This document shows, piece by piece, positions 28,900 through 37,837 of a stretch of DNA of 64,000 nt. The translations under genes and the position numbers were made by a program. How positions within the stretch are numbered: position 1 is the stretch's first letter; every line of letters begins with the position of its first letter. The notes under the pieces are model-generated. The model was not told the DNA's origin. It did not search any database and was given only the letters and a program-made list of their open reading frames with translations. Source of the DNA: Rhodospirillales bacterium (lineage in GTDB: Bacteria > Pseudomonadota > Alphaproteobacteria > UBA8366 > JADFVY01); the NCBI GenBank assembly GCA_020356105.1, contig CP070634.1, positions 3,611,353-3,675,352 of the forward strand, in the 5' to 3' direction.

Positions 28900-29679
28900 A
28901 TGGATCTGGGACTGAAGGGCAAGAAGGCGATCGTCTGTGCCTCGTCGAAGGGGCTGGGGCGGGCCTGCGCGATGGCGCTGGCGCGCGAGGGCGTCGAGCT
29001 GGTGATCAATTCGCGCAGCTCGCAAGCGCTGGAAGCGACGGCGGCGGAGATCCGCAGCGAGACTGGCGTTGCCGTCACGCCGGTGGCCTGCGACGTCACC
29101 ACCGAAGCGGGGCGAGCCGAGCTGCTCGCCGCCTGCCCGGACCCGGACATCCTGGTCAACAACGCCGGCGGGCCGCCGCCCGGCGACTTCCGCGACTGGG
29201 ACCGCGACGACTGGATCAAGGCGCTGGATGCCAACATGCTGACCCCGATCTTCCTGATCAAGGCGACGGTCGATGGCATGATCGACCGCAAGTTCGGACG
29301 CATCGTCAACATAACCTCGGGCGCGGTGAAGGCGCCGATCGAGATTCTCGGGCTTTCCAACGGCGCCCGCGCCGGGCTGACCGGCTTCATCGCCGGTCTC
29401 GCGCGCAAGACGGTGCGCCATAACGTGACCATCAACAACCTGCTGCCGGGGCCGTTCGATACCGAACGCCTGCACGCTAACATGAAGGTTTCGGCCGAGA
29501 AGGCCGGAGTCAGCGTCGAGGAGTTCGCGGCCCAACGCGCCGCCGGCAACCCCGCCGGCCGGTTCGGCGACCCGGCGGAGTTCGGCCACGCTTGCGCCTT
29601 CCTGTGCTCGGCGCGGAGCGGATTCATCACCGGCCAGAACCTGCTGCTCGATGGCGGCGCTTTCCCAGGGACGCTCTAG
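28900..29679 (+). CDS. SDR-family oxidoreductase
   Basis: 259 aa with the TGxxxGxG-type motif (CASSKGLGRACA), NNAG, and a classical SDR layout. Confidence 0.85.
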   Translation: MDLGLKGKKAIVCASSKGLGRACAMALAREGVELVINSRSSQALEATAAEIRSETGVAVTPVACDVTTEAGRAELLAACPDPDILVNNAGGPPPGDFRDWDRDDWIKALDANMLTPIFLIKATVDGMIDRKFGRIVNITSGAVKAPIEILGLSNGARAGLTGFIAGLARKTVRHNVTINNLLPGPFDTERLHANMKVSAEKAGVSVEEFAAQRAAGNPAGRFGDPAEFGHACAFLCSARSGFITGQNLLLDGGAFPGTL

Positions 29680-29843
29680 AGACTGTGCAAGAACCGTTTA
29701 GGCGCCGCCGCGAAAGACCGGGTCCCACACGCAATCGATAGACAGTTCAAGGCCGACGGATGCCGCTCTTGAGGTAACGATGGCAGCGTCATAGACTTTG
29801 CTGACGATTGGGCCAAGTGGACCAGCCGGGGCGGGCCAGACGC

Positions 29844-31322
29844 GTGCGGGAATCACTGTTCTATCTGAAGCGCAAGCCCGGGATGAGCATCCAGGCGAGC
29901 ATCCGCGAGATGCTGGTCTCGGCGATCCTGGCCCGGCAACTCGCGCCGACGCAGCCGCTTCCCTCCTCCCGGGAGCTGGCGCGGCGGCTGGGCGTGTCGC
30001 GCAACACGGTGGTGCTCGCCTATCAGGGGCTGGTCGACGACGGTTTCATCGAAGCGCGCCAGCGCAGTGGCTATTTCGTCAATCCGGAGATCCTCGAGAG
30101 CCCGCCGGCGCGCCGGGCGCCGGCGGAGCCAGACGCCGCCGACGGGCCCGACTGGGAGAGCATGCTGCGGATGCACCCGGGACGCCAGCCGAACATCGAA
30201 AAGCCGGACGACTGGCAGTCCTATCCCTATCCCTTCGTCTATGGGCAGATCGACCCCGGTCTGTTTCCGATCGCCGCCTGGCGCGACTGCACGCGCCAGG
30301 CGCTGGGGCTCAAGGGCATCGGCCAATGGACGGCGGACCGACTGCATCTGGACGATCCGGAACTGGTGCAGCAGATCCGCACGCGCGTGCTGCCGCGCCG
30401 CGGCATCTGGGTCTCCGCGGACGAGATCCTGATCACGCTGGGCGCGCAGAACGCCCTCTACCTGTTGGCCAGCCTGTTCATCACGCCGGACACCACCGTC
30501 GCGATGGAGGAGCCCGGCTATCCCGACGTGCGCAACATCTTCGCCCTCAAGACCGGCCGCATCCGCCCGATCCCGGTCGATTCCGGCGGGCTTCCCGTGG
30601 ATGATCGGCTTGACGGCTGCGATTTCGTCTATGTCACCCCGAGCCATCAGTTCCCGACCACGGTGACGATGCCCGCGGCGCGCCGTGAAGCCCTGTTGGC
30701 CCGCGCCAGCGAGTCGCGCTTCGTCGTCATCGAGGACGACTACGAGTTCGAGACCAACTACATCGGCAATCCGACGCCGGCCCTCAAATCGATGGATCGC
30801 GACGGTCGTGTCGTCTATGTCGGCAGCCTTTCGAAGACGCTGTTTCCCGGCTTGCGGCTCGGCTATCTGGTGGGTGCGAAACCGCTGATCGAAGAGGCAA
30901 GGGCGTTGCGCCGCCTGATGATGCGCCACGCGCCGAACAACAACCAGCGAACCACCGCTCTGTTCCTTTCACTCGGCCATCACGACGCGCTGGTGCGCCG
31001 ACTGCACCGGATCTACCGGGCACGCTGGCGCGCGATGGACGACGCGCTTTCGCGGCATCTCCCGGAGTCCGCCCGCGCTCCCGGATTCGGCGGCACCAGC
31101 GTCTGGGTGCGCGGCCCGGCCAGGCTCGACAGCGCGGCGCTGGCGCGCGCGGCGCTGGAGGAGGGCATCGTCATCGAGCCCGGCCATGTGCATTTCATGA
31201 CCGCGCCGCAACCGCGCCGGTTCTTCCGGCTCGGCTTTTCGGCGATCCCGGAGGAACGCATCGAACCCGGCGTGCGGCTGCTGTCCGATCTGATCCACAG
31301 CACCAAAGCGGCGCGGGTTTGA
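29844..31322 (+). CDS. MocR-subfamily GntR regulator (wHTH + aminotransferase-like domain), TauR-like by context
   Basis: wHTH LPSSRELARRLGVSRNTVVLAYQGLVDDGFIEARQRSGYFV plus a fold-type-I aminotransferase domain (SLSKTLFPGLRLGY). The start is ambiguous (TTG 29808, GTG 29844, ATG 29883). It lies directly upstream of xsc. Confidence 0.8.
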   Translation: MRESLFYLKRKPGMSIQASIREMLVSAILARQLAPTQPLPSSRELARRLGVSRNTVVLAYQGLVDDGFIEARQRSGYFVNPEILESPPARRAPAEPDAADGPDWESMLRMHPGRQPNIEKPDDWQSYPYPFVYGQIDPGLFPIAAWRDCTRQALGLKGIGQWTADRLHLDDPELVQQIRTRVLPRRGIWVSADEILITLGAQNALYLLASLFITPDTTVAMEEPGYPDVRNIFALKTGRIRPIPVDSGGLPVDDRLDGCDFVYVTPSHQFPTTVTMPAARREALLARASESRFVVIEDDYEFETNYIGNPTPALKSMDRDGRVVYVGSLSKTLFPGLRLGYLVGAKPLIEEARALRRLMMRHAPNNNQRTTALFLSLGHHDALVRRLHRIYRARWRAMDDALSRHLPESARAPGFGGTSVWVRGPARLDSAALARAALEEGIVIEPGHVHFMTAPQPRRFFRLGFSAIPEERIEPGVRLLSDLIHSTKAARV

Positions 31323-31585
31323 GGGGGCAGCGGCAGCCGCCGCGACTGGCACCGTCGATTGCCACCAACTGGCCCTTTGACCGGCGGCATGGGGGGCCCT
31401 AAAACAAGGCGGTACGCAGCGGCCTGCCCGCGCGACAGGGAGGAAACGGCGATGCCCGCGATTTTGCGCGATCCGCCGTTTTCATCGAGGATTTTTCCGT
31501 CCGACGCCGCCCGCCGCGGCGGCTGCCGGCCGGCTCATCGCACGTGCGGCGGCCCCGAGCTGGGCCGCATCAGGAGGAGTTCGAG

Positions 31586-33367
31586 ATGACCAAGATGACC
31601 ACCGAGGAAGCGTTCGTCAAAGTGCTGCAGCGGCACGGGATCGAGCATGCGTTCGGGATCATCGGCTCGGCAATGATGCCGGTGTCCGATCTGTTCCCGA
31701 AGGCCGGAATCACGTTCTGGGATTGCGCCCATGAATGCAACGCCGGCATGATGGCGGACGGCTTTACCCGGGCCAGCGGCAAGATGAGCATGCTGATCGC
31801 GCAGAACGGGCCCGGAATCACCAACTTCGTCACCCCGGTCAAGACGGCCTACTGGAACCACACGCCCTTGCTCCTGGTGACGCCGCAGGCCGCCAACAAG
31901 ACGATCGGCCAGGGCGGTTTCCAGGAAATCCCGCAGATGTCGCTGTTCGAGGACATGGTCTGTTACCAGGAAGAGGTGCGCGACCCGTCCCGGATCGCCG
32001 AGGTACTGAACCGGGTGATCGAGCAGGCCTGGCGCGGCAGCGCGCCGGCGCAGATCAACGTGCCGCGCGACTTCTGGACCCAGATCGTCGATATCGAGAT
32101 CCCCGAAACCGTCAGGCTCGAACGCCCGGCCGGCGGCGAGCAGGCGATCGCCGAGGCGGCGAAGCTGCTGTCGGATGCGAAATTTCCGGTGATCCTGAAC
32201 GGCGCCGGCGTCGTGCTCTCGGGCGGTATCCCGGCATCCGCGAAGCTTGCAGAGAAGCTCGGCGCGCCGGTCTGCTGTGGCTATCAGCACAACGACGCGT
32301 TCCCGGGTTCGCACCCGCTCTCGGTCGGCCCGCTCGGCTATAACGGCTCAAAGGCGGCGATGGAACTGATCGCTAAGGCCGATGTGGTGCTGTGCCTGGG
32401 GACCCGGCTCAACCCGTTCTCGACCCTGCCCGGCTACGGCATCGATTACTGGCCCAAGGACGCCAAGGTGATCCAGGTCGATGTCAACGCGGATCGCATC
32501 GGGCTGACCAAGAAGGTCACCGTCGCCGTCCAGGGCGACGCCAGGCTGGTCGCCGAGCGCCTGCTCGCGAAACTCGCCGCCAATGCGGGCAATGCCGGCC
32601 GCGACGAGCGCGAGGCGCTGATCCATCAGACGCGTTCCGCCTGGCAGCAGCAGCTCGCCTCGATGGACCATGAGGACGACGATCCGGGCACGACGTGGAA
32701 CGAGCGCGCACGCGACCGCGAGCCGGAGAAGATGTCGCCGCGCATGGCTTGGCGGGCGATCCAGTCGGCGCTGCCGAAGGACTTCATCATGTCGTCGGAC
32801 ATCGGCAACAACTGCGCGATCGGCAACGCCTACCCGACTTTCGAGCATGGGCGCCGCTATCTCGCACCGGGCCTTTTCGGGCCCTGCGGCTATGGCTTCC
32901 CGTCGATCCTGGGCGCCAAGATCGCGTGCCCGGACCTGCCGGTCATCGGTTTTGCTGGGGACGGCGCCTTCGGCATCTCGATGAACGAGATGACCGCCTG
33001 CGGCCGCGACGAGTGGCCGGCGATCACCATGGTGATCTTCCGCAACTACCAATGGGGCGCCGAAAAGCGGAACACGACGCTGTGGTATGCCGACAACTTC
33101 GTCGGCACCGAGCTCGACCTCGACGTCGAATACGCGAAGATCGCCGAGGCCTGCGGCGTCAGGGGCGTTCAGGTCGCAACGATGGAGCAGCTGACCGAAG
33201 AGTTGAAGAAGGCCATCGATGCGCAGATGAAGAACAAGGAGACGGTCTTCATCGAGGCGTTGATCAACCAGGAGTTGGGCGAGCCGTTCCGCCGCGACGC
33301 CATGAAGGCGCCGACCGTCGTTGCGGGAATCGATCCGGCCGACATGCGGCCGCAGCAGGCCGGGTAA
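31586..33367 (+). CDS. xsc: Sulfoacetaldehyde acetyltransferase (ThDP-dependent)
   Basis: ATG 31586 (CAGGAGGAG upstream). The N-terminus MTKMTTEEAFVKVLQRHGIEHAFGIIGSAMMPVSDLFPKAGITFWDCAHECNAGMMADGFTRA matches my memory of characterised Xsc proteins. ThDP motif GDGAFGISMNE. About 593 aa. Confidence 0.85.
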   Translation: MTKMTTEEAFVKVLQRHGIEHAFGIIGSAMMPVSDLFPKAGITFWDCAHECNAGMMADGFTRASGKMSMLIAQNGPGITNFVTPVKTAYWNHTPLLLVTPQAANKTIGQGGFQEIPQMSLFEDMVCYQEEVRDPSRIAEVLNRVIEQAWRGSAPAQINVPRDFWTQIVDIEIPETVRLERPAGGEQAIAEAAKLLSDAKFPVILNGAGVVLSGGIPASAKLAEKLGAPVCCGYQHNDAFPGSHPLSVGPLGYNGSKAAMELIAKADVVLCLGTRLNPFSTLPGYGIDYWPKDAKVIQVDVNADRIGLTKKVTVAVQGDARLVAERLLAKLAANAGNAGRDEREALIHQTRSAWQQQLASMDHEDDDPGTTWNERARDREPEKMSPRMAWRAIQSALPKDFIMSSDIGNNCAIGNAYPTFEHGRRYLAPGLFGPCGYGFPSILGAKIACPDLPVIGFAGDGAFGISMNEMTACGRDEWPAITMVIFRNYQWGAEKRNTTLWYADNFVGTELDLDVEYAKIAEACGVRGVQVATMEQLTEELKKAIDAQMKNKETVFIEALINQELGEPFRRDAMKAPTVVAGIDPADMRPQQAG

Positions 33368-33527
33368 GGCGATTTATTGCGATCGTTTCGGCTGCGATGC
33401 GGTTGACGCGCCTGTCCGCACGCTCGACAAACTCAGGTGCGTCACGGTAGCCTGAACCGCATCGGAACCGGCGGGCCGGCGCGGTCTTGGCTTGGCGGTG
33501 CGTGCGGCGGCAGGGCAGGGCAGAACG

Positions 33528-34775
33528 ATGCGATTGACCGATCATGAAGAGGCGATGCTCGCCGGCGGATTCGGCGAGCCGCGCCGCCGCGCGCTGGAGC
33601 AGCAAATTCAGGTCGGGCAGTTCTTCGATGCCGAGGATTTCGTCGAGATCAGCCAGGTCCACCTGATGGCGGATACCGAATCTCTGGGCGAGGCGGGCGT
33701 CGCCTGGCTCGAGGAGATCGCCACCTTTCCGGAGGCGGAGCGCCGCGTTCGCGTGCCGACGGTCACCGATCCGCGGGGCATCGATTTCGACGCCTACCGG
33801 CGGCTCAACCAGCTCGAGTCCTGGGCGGTTCTCGAGCAGCGCGCCATCGATGCGTTCGTGGCGATGGGCGTGCTGATGACCGATACCTGCATCAACTACC
33901 AGACGATCATTCCGCCGGCCTATCGCGAGCACATCGCCTTCGGCGACACCGGATCGACCATCTACGCCAACAGCGTGCTCGGTGCGCGCAGCAATTTCGA
34001 GGGCGGCCCGGCGGCGCTGGCGGCGGCGCTGACCGGCCGGACGCCGCGTTACGGCTGCCATCTGGAGGAGGGGCGTCGCGGCACGCACCGGTTCGTCGTC
34101 AAGGACCGGCCGCGCAGTTTGAGCGACTGGGGGGCGCTGGGCGGCGTCGTCGGCCGCGCGACGGGATCCTACTGGACGGTGCCGGTGCTCGAGGGTATCG
34201 ACGGCACGCCGACCTCGGACGAGCTCAAGCATTTCGGCGCCGCGCTGGCCAGCTACGGCTCGGTGCCGCTGTTCCACATGATCGGCGTGACGCCCGAGGC
34301 GCAGGATCTGGGTGACGTCTTCGCCGGCAAGGTGCCGGACCCGATCACGCTGACGCGTGCCGATATGGACGCCTTCTATGACGGCTTCGGGCTGCATGAG
34401 GACGGCGTCGATGTCGTCGTCTTCGCGGCACCGCAACAATCGCTGGTCGAGATGCAACGGATCGCCCGGCTGCTGGAAGGGCGCACCGTCCAAGCCGGCA
34501 CGACCCTGATCGCCGCCACCTCGCCCGAGATCAAGTCGGCCTGCGACCGCATGGGCCTCACCGCGACCATCGAGGCGGCGGGCGGCATCGTCCTCCAGGG
34601 GGTCTGCTTCTATCAGATGTATGCGCGCGAGACCGGGGAGGCGAATGGATGGAAGCGGCTGCTGACGAACTCGGCGAAGCTGGTCAACATCATCGCGGGT
34701 TACGGCTACGAGCCCGTGCTGGCGCCGATGGAAAGTTGCATCGAGGCGGCCTGTGCCGGCCGGATGGCGAAATGA
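33528..34775 (+). CDS. Aconitase X large (catalytic) subunit, DUF521 family
   Basis: ATG 33528 (MRLTDHEEAMLAGGFGE...). The layout is typical of DUF521 (VHLMADTESLGEAG..., TDTCINYQ, GDTGSTIYANSVLGARSNFEGGP). 415 aa. Confidence 0.75.
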   Translation: MRLTDHEEAMLAGGFGEPRRRALEQQIQVGQFFDAEDFVEISQVHLMADTESLGEAGVAWLEEIATFPEAERRVRVPTVTDPRGIDFDAYRRLNQLESWAVLEQRAIDAFVAMGVLMTDTCINYQTIIPPAYREHIAFGDTGSTIYANSVLGARSNFEGGPAALAAALTGRTPRYGCHLEEGRRGTHRFVVKDRPRSLSDWGALGGVVGRATGSYWTVPVLEGIDGTPTSDELKHFGAALASYGSVPLFHMIGVTPEAQDLGDVFAGKVPDPITLTRADMDAFYDGFGLHEDGVDVVVFAAPQQSLVEMQRIARLLEGRTVQAGTTLIAATSPEIKSACDRMGLTATIEAAGGIVLQGVCFYQMYARETGEANGWKRLLTNSAKLVNIIAGYGYEPVLAPMESCIEAACAGRMAK

Positions 34776-35182
34776 GCGATCGCATCATTAGAGGCCATGT
34801 CGGCATTGGCGCCGCGGTCACCGGCACCGCGCTGGTGGCCCGGGACGATTTCAGCGCCCGCTACGATCTCGACCGCATCGCCGGCGTCTTCTCGCGCCCG
34901 GCGCACAAGCTGTGCGGCGAGTCTTACGTCGGCAAGATCCTGGTCCTGAATACCGCCAAGGGCGGCGTCGCCACGGCGTGGATGCTGCATGAAATGCGGG
35001 CGCGCGGGATGGCTCCGGCGGCGCTGCTGCTGAACGCGGCAAACCCGATCATGGCGCAGGGCGCGGCGCTGGCCGGGTTGCCCTTTGTGGACCGCTTCGA
35101 GACCGACATCACTGCGGCGATCCGGACCGGCGACGAGGTCGCAGTCGATCCGGCGGCAGGCACCGTCACCATCCTGGCCTGA
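34772..35182 (+). CDS. Aconitase X small (swivel) subunit, DUF126 family
   Basis: ATG 34772 overlaps the upstream TGA (ATGA). 136 aa. ...GESYVGKILVLNTAKGGVATAWMLHEMRARGMAPAALLLNAANPIMAQGAALAGLP is typical of DUF126. Confidence 0.7.
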   Translation: MSDRIIRGHVGIGAAVTGTALVARDDFSARYDLDRIAGVFSRPAHKLCGESYVGKILVLNTAKGGVATAWMLHEMRARGMAPAALLLNAANPIMAQGAALAGLPFVDRFETDITAAIRTGDEVAVDPAAGTVTILA

Positions 35183-35209
35183 CCGCGCGGTGCCGTTGGA
35201 GGAGAGGCG

Positions 35210-36127
35210 ATGCTGAGCAGATTGCCCTTCGAGTTTCCCGCCTATCTCGGCGATCTTGCCGCGACGCTGGCGCCGGTGCCGATGGCGGTGGCCGGGGCCG
35301 GTCATCCGCTGGTTATGGACAGCGCCCGGCGTGCCGCAGAAGCCGGATTCATCGACCCGATCCTGGTCGGCGACGCCGATGCCATCGCGGCCCTGGCCAC
35401 CGATGTCGGATGGCACCTCGCCGCGATCCGGGTGGTTCCGGCAAGCGACGAGCGGCGCGCCTGCGAGACGGCGGCCGCGTTGGCCCGTGGCGGTGAGGTG
35501 GCGGCGATCATGAAGGGGCATGTCCATACGGACGCGCTGATGCGGGCCCTCTTGGCGCGCGACGCCGGGCTGCGCACCGACCGCCGGGTCAGCCACATCT
35601 TCCACATGACCGTGCCGGGGCGCGACCGCGTGCTGCACATCACCGACGCCGCGGTCAACATCCGGCCGGAGGTCGACGCCAAGCTCGACATCGTGCGCAA
35701 CGCAGTCGATCTCGCTCATCGCCTGGGCCTCGCCGCGCCCAGGGTGGCGCTGCTGTCCGGGGCCGAGACCGTCAATCCGTCGATGCCATCCAGCGTCGAG
35801 GCGGCCGAGGTGGTGCGCGCCGCCGCCAATGGCGGCGTCTCCGGCGCCGTCGTCGACGGTCCGTTCGGCTTCGACAACGCGGTCTCGCCGGAGGCGGCGC
35901 GGCTCAAGGGGATCGACAGCCCGGTCGCCGGGGCCGCCGATATCCTGGTGGTGCCGAATCTCGAGGCCGGCAACTTCCTGTTCAAGCAGATGGTCTATTT
36001 CATGAGCGCGACGGCGGCCGGCATCGTCATGGGCGCGAAGGTGCCCGTCGTGCTGACCTCGCGCGCCGATCCGCCGGAAGCGCGGCTGGCCGCCGCCGCG
36101 ATCGCGGCAATCGTGGCCCGGCATTGA
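35210..36127 (+). CDS. pta: Phosphate acetyltransferase (PTA_PTB-only short form)
   Basis: 305 aa, starting 27 nt after the DUF126 stop with a GGAGGAGAGG RBS. Motifs AIMKGHVHTD, LHITDAAVNI and ADILVVPNLEAGNFLFK. It is the usual partner of xsc. Confidence 0.8.
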   Translation: MLSRLPFEFPAYLGDLAATLAPVPMAVAGAGHPLVMDSARRAAEAGFIDPILVGDADAIAALATDVGWHLAAIRVVPASDERRACETAAALARGGEVAAIMKGHVHTDALMRALLARDAGLRTDRRVSHIFHMTVPGRDRVLHITDAAVNIRPEVDAKLDIVRNAVDLAHRLGLAAPRVALLSGAETVNPSMPSSVEAAEVVRAAANGGVSGAVVDGPFGFDNAVSPEAARLKGIDSPVAGAADILVVPNLEAGNFLFKQMVYFMSATAAGIVMGAKVPVVLTSRADPPEARLAAAAIAAIVARH

Positions 36128-36240: not shown

Positions 36241-36921
36241 ATGCGCAAGATACTGATCATCAATCTTTTTCTGCCCGCCATCTTACTTACCGGGGGTCCG
36301 GCGCGCGCCGACGGATTCGCCATTGGCGCAGGTATCAGCACGATGGGTTACGGTATCCATGCCGCAACCGAGGTGAACAGCTTTCTGGCCCTGCGCGTGA
36401 ACGGGAATTTCGGCGATTTCACGATTCCGGATTATGGGCTGCTGAGCAGCAGCCTCGGCGGCCTCGACTACGACATTGATGCCAGGATGAAGTCGATCGG
36501 CTTGCTCGCGGACCTGCACCCGCTGGGGCTGTCGCCGATCGGCGGCGGCTTCGTTTTGACCGGCGGTGTCTTCTATAATCAGAACGAGTTCGATTTTAGC
36601 GCTGTTTCGGGGGCGGGCGATACGATCGGCGGCGTTCCGATCCCCGCGGGAACGTCGGTGATCGCGAACATGACGTTCGACAGGGAATTCGCCCCTTATG
36701 CCGGGCTCGGTTACGACGGCACGTTCCAGGGTGCGCTGCCGATCAGCTTCTTTCTTACGGCAGGCGTGCTGTTCCAGGGCGGTCCCAGTGTCGCGCTGAC
36801 CGAGTCGAGCGGGACCGTTCCCCAGGCGAACTTGGATGCCGAGGCCCGCCAGATCGAAGAAGACGCTCAGGATTTCGAGTATTACCCGGTCGTCGCGATC
36901 GGCCTGACGATCAGTTTCTGA
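36241..36921 (+). CDS. Outer-membrane beta-barrel protein (OmpW/porin-like)
   Basis: Signal peptide MRKILIINLFLPAILLTGGPARA, alternating beta-strand pattern, and C-terminal ...VVAIGLTISF ending in Phe. Confidence 0.6.
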   Translation: MRKILIINLFLPAILLTGGPARADGFAIGAGISTMGYGIHAATEVNSFLALRVNGNFGDFTIPDYGLLSSSLGGLDYDIDARMKSIGLLADLHPLGLSPIGGGFVLTGGVFYNQNEFDFSAVSGAGDTIGGVPIPAGTSVIANMTFDREFAPYAGLGYDGTFQGALPISFFLTAGVLFQGGPSVALTESSGTVPQANLDAEARQIEEDAQDFEYYPVVAIGLTISF

Positions 36922-36943
36922 ACGGGAGCGCTCGACGTTTGCA

Positions 36944-36968
36944 GGGCGGCCGCCGCGCCGCCCTTTTT
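36944..36968 (+). terminator. Rho-independent terminator after the OMP gene
   Basis: GGGCGGC-cgccgc-GCCGCCC followed by TTTTTG. Confidence 0.6.
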
Positions 36969-37760: not shown

Positions 37761-37837
37761 CGATTTAGCGCGGTCTTCAGGATCGCGGAACGCGGCCCGG
37801 CCTCGTGCCGGGCCGTTTCTATTTGGTGCTTGCGCAT

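Follow-up and report, generated by a model that had tools for sequence, protein, structure and literature searches.

No branch of the aconitase superfamily is less well understood than aconitase X (AcnX). Two activities alone have been described for it, and several bacterial subclasses lack the landmark residues of both characterised types (PMC8184944); the bacterial subclasses IIc to IIf, without these residues, are uncharacterised (PMC8184944; PMC10040528). One activity, mevalonate-5-phosphate (MVA5P) dehydratase, is that of the archaeal type IIb enzymes of Thermococcus kodakarensis (TK1248/TK1249; PDB 7CNR/7CNS) and Aeropyrum pernix, which combine a PF04412 large subunit with a PF01989 small subunit. 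The other consists in dehydrating cis-3-hydroxy-L-proline (C3LHyp), as in the solved type I enzyme of Agrobacterium tumefaciens. Here we analyse a pair of subunits from the same two Pfam families, encoded by acnXL and acnXS (together acnXLS), in a 64-kb stretch of contig CP070634.1 from a Rhodospirillales bacterium, below called the window. The pair lies between xsc (sulfoacetaldehyde acetyltransferase) and pta (a phosphate acyltransferase) in a locus that has good support as a taurine/sulfoacetaldehyde module. The presence of an AcnX pair in a taurine operon is real, recurs within one lineage and has not been described before. A search of the literature accessible to us found no prior link of AcnX, DUF521 or DUF126 to xsc, taurine, sulfoacetaldehyde, sulfosuccinate or sulfonates, and a 2013 paper on correlations among DUF families notes only the co-occurrence of DUF521 and DUF126.

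The closest described loci on the taurine side are the canonical tau loci of Cereibacter sphaeroides and Paracoccus (NZ_CP015291.1, NZ_CP102356.1), in which a divergent tauR stands beside tauKLM-tauXY-xsc-tauZ-pta. A reconstruction of the TauR regulon comprises Tpa, Ald, TauXY, Xsc, TauE, TauZ, Pta and a few accessory genes, and mentions no member of the aconitase family (PMC5320631). The locus of the window shares with the canonical ones a MocR-type regulator (45% identity), Xsc (78-80% identity) and a terminal phosphotransacetylase, and sister species resemble them also in having an exporter gene that separates xsc from pta. It differs in that the window holds no uptake system, taurine dehydrogenase or aminotransferase, and its regulator is co-directional rather than divergent. 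Its Pta is PTB-like, with 27% local identity to that of C. sphaeroides (L090 11088-12086; L numbers denote the surveyed loci), the exporter of the relatives is TauE and not TauZ, and the AcnX pair has no counterpart in the canonical loci.

An aconitase X pair within a taurine locus

The window was examined by profile searches against Pfam and NCBIfam, by tblastn and by terminator and promoter scans; coordinates and scores are collected in Table 1. The arrangement described in an earlier note, which had been made from the sequence letters, was borne out gene by gene. xsc is followed after 160 nt by a DUF521-type reading frame (acnXL), the stop of which overlaps, in ATGA, the start of the DUF126-type acnXS; the PTA_PTB-type gene comes 27 nt later behind a ribosome-binding site, and the MocR-type regulator, placed by the note about 260 nt upstream on the same strand, ends 263 nt before xsc. 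The ATG of xsc is preceded by AGGAGG at a distance of 8 nt. Residues 13-418 of the acnXL reading frame cover positions 1-400 of the 400 in the PF04412 profile, and its product has an identical counterpart on record, a 415-aa "aconitase X catalytic domain-containing protein" of a Rhodospirillales bacterium. The product of pta, which also starts with ATG, scores 361 bits against NCBIfam PRK08190 (cutoff 282) over the phosphotransacetylase part of the model; this best NCBIfam match is to the phosphotransacetylase half of a [quoted passage not shown]. On the + strand, no terminator-like hairpin was found from the end of mocR to the end of pta. A sigma-70 promoter ahead of acnXL in the window was considered and rejected, none being found on scanning.

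Over its full length, the MocR product is 45% identical (370 bits) to a MocR-type protein encoded on a C. sphaeroides plasmid, where the gene stands divergent from tauKLM-tauXY-xsc-tauZ-pta; NCBIfam names the product PdxR-like (354 bits, cutoff 320). In marine metagenomes, many tauR-ald-xsc-pta loci are headed by a MocR orthologue of 60-65% identity, and upstream of one of these loci there is a class III aminotransferase gene. Beginning 24 nt past the mocR stop is a direct repeat, CTGGCA-N16-ACTGGCCC, which matches once in the 64 kb, where 0.02 matches would be expected; the statistic is not independent, since the pattern was derived from these sequences. It occupies the same place after mocR in five relatives (L006 434-463, L008 1172-1201, L009 7082-7111, L011 7840-7869, L099 2866-2895). 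These include loci without xsc, in which the repeat precedes acnXL instead. For MocR regulators, TauR among them, binding to direct repeats spaced by two or three helical turns is reported (PMC5320631), and the repeat is a candidate TauR operator. In L011, a sister species, tauCBA stands divergent beside mocR, with TauA at 404 bits (cutoff 304) and TauB and TauC just under their cutoffs. The 45% identity, the direct repeat and the tauCBA genes of L011 support the TauR-like nature that the earlier note had ascribed to the regulator.

Among the components of the TauR regulon, the window thus holds an Xsc orthologue, a MocR-type regulator with its repeat, and a phosphotransacetylase gene after xsc; a TauE or TauZ exporter, TauABC or TauKLM uptake, and TauXY or Tpa plus Ald were not found within the 64 kb. 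In tblastn searches, the whole window gave no match to TauABC, TauKLM, TauXY, TauZ, TauE, TauD or Ald, nor to Tpa-like aminotransferases, ComDE-like proteins, GMC (glucose-methanol-choline) oxidoreductases or SulP. The earlier statement that feeder genes and a tauE-type exporter are not to be seen in the window therefore holds, and sister species carry tauE between acnXS and pta. A tpa-like gene and ald occur in related loci without AcnX.

The linkage is not confined to the window genome and recurs in about ten relatives at the species level. In a survey centred on AcnX (the best 80 loci, one genome per GTDB species), 8 of the 80 species, with AcnXL 81-89% identical, and one metagenome contig carry acnXLS in a tau locus, and a survey centred on Pta (80 metagenome loci) yielded seven further contigs of this lineage with acnXLS(-tauE)-pta. 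The eight species and the contig of the AcnX survey share the backbone hdaA-SDR-mocR ... OMP-phasin-clpSA (SDR, short-chain dehydrogenase/reductase; OMP, outer-membrane protein) with the window, and MocR identity in the lineage goes down to 74%. acnXL and acnXS are kept as a pair in all 80 loci of the AcnX survey except at contig ends. Two of the lineage's loci, L005 and L008, show alphaproteobacterial synteny and are binned in metagenome-assembled genomes labelled Flavobacteriales and Akkermansiaceae, which is probably mis-binning.

The genes around the pair vary. In L006-L011, L015, L095, L097 and L099, acnXS is followed, ahead of pta, by a gene for a 253-aa TauE/SafE protein (PF01925, 73-75 bits), with gaps of about 20 nt on the acnXS side and 0 nt on the pta side. 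This gene is lost from the window and from L004/L092, L005 and L098. L011 is without pta. In three relatives (L007/L097, L009, L099), xsc is absent from the locus, mocR, acnXLS, tauE and pta are retained, and acnXL follows about 90 nt after mocR and the repeat motif. Because xsc, tauE and pta vary, acnXLS is the only catabolic element present in every version of the locus. Six relatives, among them loci with xsc and loci lacking it, share a further motif, TTGGTTCG-N10-TATAGTAT, at a distance of 35-60 nt upstream of acnXL (L004 417-442, L006 2503-2528, L007 354-379, L009 7140-7165, L010 448-473, L099 2924-2949). The motif is absent from the window spacer and from L011. It was rejected as a sigma-70 promoter, there being 12 nt between the hexamers.

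Relationships, active-site residues and surroundings of the pair

The earlier note had expected the pair to have neither of the characterised AcnX functions, and scores, residues and a separate clade support this. The best match among solved structures is the T. kodakarensis enzyme (186 bits for the large and 53 bits for the small subunit), followed by the type I enzyme of A. tumefaciens with 121 bits. Against the NCBIfam hydroxyproline dehydratase equivalog NF051439, the large subunit reaches 205 bits and the small subunit 29 bits, both below the cutoff of 700. A search of 1.84 billion representatives clustered at 50% identity returned 2465 AcnX-like proteins. The whole subclass to which the window protein belongs falls into one full-length representative (681 bits); the scores of the next full-length ones are 376-300 bits, with identities of 41-47%. 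A neighbour-joining tree was built from 90 full-length AcnX representatives and the two solved enzymes, and in it the window AcnXL lies within a clade of about 15 representatives that share Asp140, Thr141, Tyr362 and the lack of a cysteine at position 301. Both the type I branch and the large three-cysteine Glu/Ser group, of which the archaeal enzyme is a member, are separate from this clade, and the pair thus falls outside the hydroxyproline dehydratases. Most AcnX representatives outside the Asp/Thr/Ala/Tyr clade have a cysteine at the position of T. kodakarensis Cys283.

Published active-site residues (PMC8184944) were mapped onto alignments of 83 large and 80 small subunits of the subclass; Tk and At below denote the T. 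kodakarensis and A. tumefaciens enzymes, and (S) the small subunit. Kept from the archaeal enzyme are Tk Cys110 and Cys342 as Cys121 and Cys360, both invariant, and Tk Lys361 (At Lys530), which binds the substrate carboxylate and C3 hydroxyl, as Lys384 in the motif N-S-A-K (83/83). The third cluster cysteine, Tk Cys283, corresponds to Ala301 (Ala in 77 and Gly in 6 of the 83), and At Cys510 to an invariant Tyr362. Tk Glu129-Ser130 is replaced by an invariant Asp140-Thr141. In the phosphate loop, Tk Gly48-Val49-Ser50 becomes Ala48, a gap and Asp49 (Ala in 79/83, Asp invariant). Tk Asn53 is Ser52, invariant or nearly so in the subclass, Tk Asn79 is an invariant Asp81, and Tk Ala81 is Arg83 in 82/83.

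In the small subunit, Tk Leu27(S), equivalent to At Trp35, is an invariant Arg30(S) in the motif SARYD, and the general-base serine (Tk Ser62(S), At Ser70) is an invariant glycine, Gly65(S). This glycine is aligned with the base serine in both the phmmer and the MAFFT L-INS-i alignments, and its motif AKGGVA[TS]AW replaces the KGS motif. The C3LHyp-binding residues Trp35, Thr72, Asp203 and Ile206 are not kept, their places being taken by Arg30(S), Ala67(S), Met47 and Asp49. Arg30(S), Arg83 and the invariant acidic residues Asp49, Glu51 and Asp81 lie where the solved enzymes bind the distal portion of their substrates.

Compared with the archaeal enzyme, the pair is bacterial, lacks a mevalonate context, falls in a separate clade, and has Cys283, Glu129-Ser130, Ser62(S), the phosphate loop and Asn79 replaced. 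Like type I hydroxyproline dehydratases, it has no cysteine at the Tk Cys283 position, and like those of type IIa it retains just two of the known cluster cysteines (PMC8184944); from the A. tumefaciens enzyme it is set apart by the low structure match, by Tyr362 in place of Cys510, and by the replacement of Trp35, Asp203, Ile206 and Ser70. Scores, residues and tree together indicate that the pair is neither a hydroxyproline nor an MVA5P dehydratase. Judged from its sequences, the clade is a proteobacteria-wide, tightly conserved and uncharacterised AcnX with altered catalytic residues. Cys404 (nt 34737-34739) was considered as a relocated third cluster ligand and rejected, as it is conserved also in three-cysteine enzymes; it is present in nearly all AcnX representatives, is Leu in T. 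kodakarensis, and aligns with At Cys561, which has no described role as a ligand or otherwise.

No hydroxyproline gene cluster was found at the locus, where the neighbours are hdaA, the SDR gene, mocR, xsc, pta, the OMP gene, a phasin gene and clpSA. The flanks are of housekeeping type, with purN, purM, hdaA and the SDR gene upstream and the OMP gene, phasin, a methyltransferase gene, clpS and clpA downstream. The SDR gene is kept beside hdaA and upstream of mocR in L009 (86%) and L011 (84%), in the latter parted from mocR by tauCBA and an acetyltransferase gene. The OMP gene, syntenic in all loci of the lineage, has a weak NCBIfam CarO match (52 bits, under the cutoff), and a second strong terminator-like hairpin follows at 37792-37816. 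The G+C content is 0.66-0.71 over about 26 kb (window 10001-36000) and 0.62-0.65 on either side, the range in the window being 0.62-0.71.

Table 1. Features of the taurine locus and its borders (window coordinates)
Feature	Position	Strand	Evidence and remarks
SDR-family oxidoreductase gene	28900..29679	+	Pfam adh_short_C2, 140 bits; membership of the unit uncertain
mocR, MocR-type TauR-like regulator	29808..31322	+	Pfam GntR helix-turn-helix and Aminotran_1_2; alternative start ATG 29844
Direct repeat CTGGCA-N16-ACTGGCCC, candidate operator of mocR	31346..31375	+	Period 22 bp
xsc, sulfoacetaldehyde acetyltransferase	31586..33367	+	NCBIfam TIGR03457 938 bits (cutoff 676); PRK07525 1030 bits
xsc-acnXL spacer, 160 nt	33368..33527	.	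No terminator-like or sigma-70-like site on scanning
acnXL, large catalytic-domain subunit of two-subunit aconitase X	33528..34775	+	PF04412, 370 bits
acnXS, small swivel subunit	34772..35182	+	PF01989, 80 bits; start overlaps acnXL stop, ATGA 34772-34775
Shine-Dalgarno-like GGAGGAGAGG before pta	35198..35207	+	Read from the sequence
pta, PTA_PTB family (PTB-like type) phosphate acyltransferase, Xsc partner	35210..36127	+	PF01515, 145 bits
Outer-membrane-protein gene and first strong terminator-like hairpin (36943-36964)	36241..36964	+	Downstream boundary of the unit

Neighbourhoods of orthologous pairs

Outside the lineage, 72 loci of the AcnX survey carry orthologues (60-77% identical) in Alpha-, Beta- and Gammaproteobacteria. 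Genes were called in these loci, and three on each side of the pair (369 proteins) were scanned against Pfam. The commonest neighbours are components of tripartite tricarboxylate (TTT) and tripartite ATP-independent periplasmic (TRAP) carboxylate transporters: TctC 14 times, TctA at least 4 and TctB 4 times, DctM 8, DctQ 6 and DctP 3 times. SDR proteins were found about 10 times, GntR/UTRA regulators 7 times, DUF3604 and TauE 5 times each, and threonine-dehydratase-like enzymes dependent on pyridoxal phosphate (PLP), Creatininase and a divergent polysaccharide deacetylase 4 times each. A single conserved partner gene that would name the substrate was looked for and rejected, none being present in these three-gene shells.

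A wider view was obtained by flagging genes with tblastn over 10 kb on either side and placing the loci on the AcnXL tree. One theme is sulfonate-flavoured. TauE is encoded directly beside acnXLS in six loci outside the lineage, which fall into three tree groups (L040/L045/L058; L041/L057; L068). SsuA-family-like binding proteins with their ATP-binding cassette partners occur in seven loci (a weak match, 46 bits against a cutoff of 163), and TauD-family dioxygenases are encoded near acnXLS in L001, L017, L022 and L068. Only L062, among the loci outside the lineage in the AcnX survey, has xsc (83%) and pta (66%) within 10 kb. In L151, one of 35 loci of the Pta survey in which xsc adjoins pta, acnXLS lies 9 kb downstream of xsc-pta on the opposite strand, in an operon that also holds a TauE gene; the same TauE gene occurs in L136, L145 and L146, at the edge of the sequence covered. 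L062 and L151, both outside the lineage, look related to each other, and in both a tpa-like gene and tauR-ald-xsc-pta lie within 10 kb of the acnXLS operon.

A second theme resembles C4-dicarboxylate metabolism. In L040, L058, L061, L062, L072, L151 and a plasmid of Sulfitobacter sp. S190, with L085 also listed, acnXLS is accompanied by a flavoprotein like SdhA or aspartate oxidase, SdhB- and SdhC-like proteins, and subunits like class I fumarase or tartrate dehydratase. TauE is often encoded inside this operon, and a glyoxalase-like protein is encoded with it too. The module of L151 (11672-18879, - strand) is convergent to the tpa-like gene and tauR-ald-xsc-pta. L040 encodes an Ldh_2 protein, the best match of which is L-sulfolactate dehydrogenase, below the cutoff (204 vs 500 bits).

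The third theme concerns glyoxylate and C2 compounds. gcl-hyi-glxR and a homologue of the BhcC hydroxyaspartate aldolase (459 bits, cutoff 690) stand beside the pair in L041, L046 and L067, and formyl-CoA transferase (715 bits) and phosphoenolpyruvate (PEP) carboxykinase genes in L023. On the Pseudorhizobium banfieldiae NT-26 plasmid NZ_FO082821.1 (L087/L089, 207.8-227.4 kb), the order is SulP-acnXLS-malate synthase G-glcDEF-acs. It is adjoined by genes for a GntR regulator, a GMC oxidoreductase, a split thiamine diphosphate (TPP) enzyme and a TRAP system with 36-44% identity to TauKLM; the last three, with SulP, count towards the sulfonate-flavoured theme. The split enzyme is weakly like sulfo- or phosphonopyruvate decarboxylase; a role as sulfopyruvate decarboxylase was considered, the matches lying far below the cutoffs (80 vs 221 and 60 vs 148 bits). 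Finally, the closest outgroups (75-77% identity) stand among trp or other housekeeping genes or beside a lone CoA-transferase gene. The strong conservation of the enzyme makes one substrate likely, and no single substrate accounts for all four themes, sulfonate-flavoured, C4-dicarboxylate-like, glyoxylate/C2 and housekeeping. Orthologues are carried by the cultured P. banfieldiae NT-26, Sulfitobacter sp. S190, Cupriavidus campinensis, Hyphomicrobium zavarzinii, Filomicrobium insigne and Methylobacterium sp. C25.

Homologues of the window-type Pta also occur in other arrangements (L116, L119, L120, L122, L130; L142, L149; L162-L166), namely immediately behind an Ald-like gene where xsc is absent, behind a TauD-family gene and under a MocR regulator, or with a TauZ-like exporter gene following. 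From these gene orders, the window-type Pta appears as a partner of several MocR-controlled modules. None of the seven plasmids with AcnX of the clade was among the 60 Xsc-bearing plasmids listed, beside which there are 112 more Xsc plasmid records.

Possible roles of the pair

The reading that we favour, with slightly less than even confidence, is that acnXLS is co-expressed with xsc and pta, and in relatives with tauE, and performs a beta-elimination on a small acid tied to sulfite-releasing taurine metabolism. In one uncultured Rhodospirillales lineage, a two-subunit AcnX would have become a fixed member of an operon controlled by a TauR-type MocR regulator. Xsc would split sulfoacetaldehyde to acetyl phosphate and sulfite, and Pta would lead on to acetyl-CoA. 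We infer that the pair is co-transcribed with these genes, catalytically active and engaged in sulfonate metabolism. The enzyme, having kept the lysine that binds carboxylate and hydroxyl and two cluster cysteines, with the general-base serine, the third cysteine and the substrate-specific residues replaced, would remove water, or possibly sulfite. Its substrate may be an acid with a second anionic group, bound by Arg30(S) and Arg83, and probably an amino or hydroxyl group near Asp49, Glu51 and Asp81. A C3 sulfonate such as 3-sulfolactate or L-cysteate is slightly favoured over a by-product derived from sulfite, a choice that is speculative. The hydroxy-sulfonate substrate proposed in the earlier note is one of several readings, only 1 of the 72 loci outside the lineage (L062) having xsc and pta within 10 kb. 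As far as gene context can tell, the other neighbourhoods of orthologues suggest C2/C4 carboxylate or amino-acid metabolism no less than sulfonates. A functional tie is argued by the position in the operon, the persistence of acnXLS-tauE-pta without xsc, the proximity to xsc-pta in L062 and L151, and the repeated partnership with TauE.

A considerable number of observations weigh against this reading. Permeases of the TauE family lack specificity for sulfite. With the catalytic serine and the third cluster cysteine gone, even hydro-lyase chemistry remains an assumption; the description of the pair in the earlier note as an Fe-S hydro-lyase is not established, with two of three cluster cysteines present and an invariant glycine for the general-base serine. 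Acidic residues at positions 49 and 81 replace the phosphate binders of the archaeal enzyme, and a sulfonate at that place is therefore not favoured. The separate motif upstream of acnXL in six relatives means that transcription of the pair may not depend on the xsc promoter. In 35 related tauR-ald-xsc-pta loci of the metagenome survey centred on Pta (Pta 56-72% identity), xsc is directly upstream of pta with nothing between. The view that xsc and pta are normally adjacent thus stands for this type of Pta and fails for the canonical Rhodobacterales loci, in which tauZ lies between them. Among the orthologous AcnX loci outside the lineage, 71 of 72 have no xsc or pta within 10 kb. Their neighbourhoods have no dominant partner, the three-gene shells holding 98-126 Pfam families each. 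From the distribution in the surveys, the presence of acnXLS between xsc and pta is a condition derived within one lineage, and the embedding in the operon is one evolutionary event. Many unrelated contexts and a single origin of the embedding disfavour a functional tie.

It is conceivable, if rather unlikely in our view, that the pair is a passenger, an unrelated catabolic pair brought into the taurine locus by one rearrangement in the lineage's ancestor and kept there with no functional tie. The restriction of the embedding to one monophyletic AcnXL group agrees with this, as do the trp, housekeeping or CoA-transferase surroundings of the nearest outgroups, the related xsc-pta loci without the pair, the relatives' own conserved motif upstream of acnXL, and the fluid content of the locus, in which xsc, tauE, pta and tauABC come and go. 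Against a passenger speaks that acnXLS stands with xsc on one side and tauE-pta on the other, 0-30 nt from the genes downstream, and so appears to head a transcription unit holding tauE and pta. It is also at odds with this explanation that acnXLS is never lost while xsc, tauE and pta vary, and that proximity to xsc-pta recurs in another lineage and adjacency to TauE elsewhere.

An unlikely alternative is that the enzyme helps on the carbon side and touches no sulfonate. Growth on the C2 unit of taurine needs a supply linked to oxaloacetate or glyoxylate, for which the operon would have recruited the enzyme; it may form oxaloacetate by dehydrating or deaminating a C4 dicarboxylate with a hydroxy or amino group, 3-hydroxyaspartate or tartrate for example. 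This would explain the glyoxylate, Sdh/fumarase-like and PEP carboxykinase contexts and the types of transporter better than the taurine-linked elimination does. Orthologues stand beside gcl-hyi-glxR with a BhcC-like homologue, beside malate synthase G, glcDEF and acs on the NT-26 plasmid, beside formyl-CoA transferase and PEP carboxykinase in L023, beside PLP enzymes like threonine or hydroxyaspartate dehydratase in four loci, and beside Sdh/aspartate-oxidase-like flavoproteins with class I fumarase/tartrate-dehydratase-like subunits in about nine; the invariant arginines and acidic pocket residues would also suit an amino dicarboxylate. None of these contexts is dominant, however, and the BhcC-like and Ldh_2 matches are under their cutoffs. 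The window has no glyoxylate genes, and TauE inside acnXLS operons in four independent groups, together with the SsuA-like transporters, would be left unexplained.

A more specific proposal, which we regard as improbable, is that the clade is a new, iron-dependent organosulfonate lyase. Sulfite (or water) would be released from a C3/C4 sulfo-carboxylate, for instance 3-sulfolactate, L-cysteate or an intermediate derived from 3-sulfopropanoate. The proposal draws on chemical analogy and gene context. Two small desulfonating lyases offer the analogy, the 3-sulfolactate sulfo-lyase SuyAB and the L-cysteate sulfo-lyase CuyA. Both eliminate sulfite beta to a proton activated by a carboxylate, and their genes are usually accompanied by one for a sulfite exporter; SuyAB is also iron-dependent and composed of a small and a large subunit. 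Neither is homologous to AcnX, and the likeness is an analogy, not evidence. If AcnX of the clade acted in this way, then in some bacteria it could form, with the Sdh-like, fumarase-like and Ldh_2 genes and TauE, a "sulfonate copy" of the succinate-fumarate-malate segment, and in the lineage of the window the enzyme would partner Xsc and Pta. Such a route of desulfonation would be unrelated to Xsc, SuyAB, CuyA, TauD and glycyl-radical enzymes, and could explain the mineralisation of 3-sulfopropanoate or related excreted sulfonates.

A non-catalytic derivative, which has lost AcnX chemistry and serves in binding or regulation, is very improbable. The clade-wide loss of the general-base serine and third cluster cysteine would fit, but 60-90% identity is maintained over three proteobacterial classes, and the lysine, two cysteines and many residues of the pocket are invariant; the pair also lies in catabolic operons beside uptake transporters, and activity is reported for bacterial type IIa enzymes, which have no more than two cluster cysteines (PMC8184944). 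That the pair has one of the two known activities can be dismissed almost entirely: the shared Pfam families, the weak NCBIfam hydroxyproline dehydratase match and the 186 bits to the archaeal enzyme are outweighed by the score of 205 bits against a cutoff of 700, the separate clade among the 50%-identity representatives, the change of Trp35, Asp203, Ile206 and the base Ser70 to Arg, Met, Asp and Gly, the replaced MVA5P phosphate loop and Asn79, and a locus free of hydroxyproline and mevalonate genes.

In conclusion, we report here one uncharacterised AcnX clade that is tied to a defined physiological setting, a TauR-controlled taurine operon, and in which the residues thought to do the chemistry have changed, the general-base serine being gone and two cluster cysteines remaining. 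Taurine and C3 sulfonates are major currencies of the marine and soil organosulfur cycle, and a sulfonate or sulfite adduct as substrate would add a step or route to that cycle. Formation of oxaloacetate from a C4 hydroxy or amino acid would instead make the enzyme a non-PLP counterpart of known dehydratases. Either class of substrate would give the AcnX family a third function.

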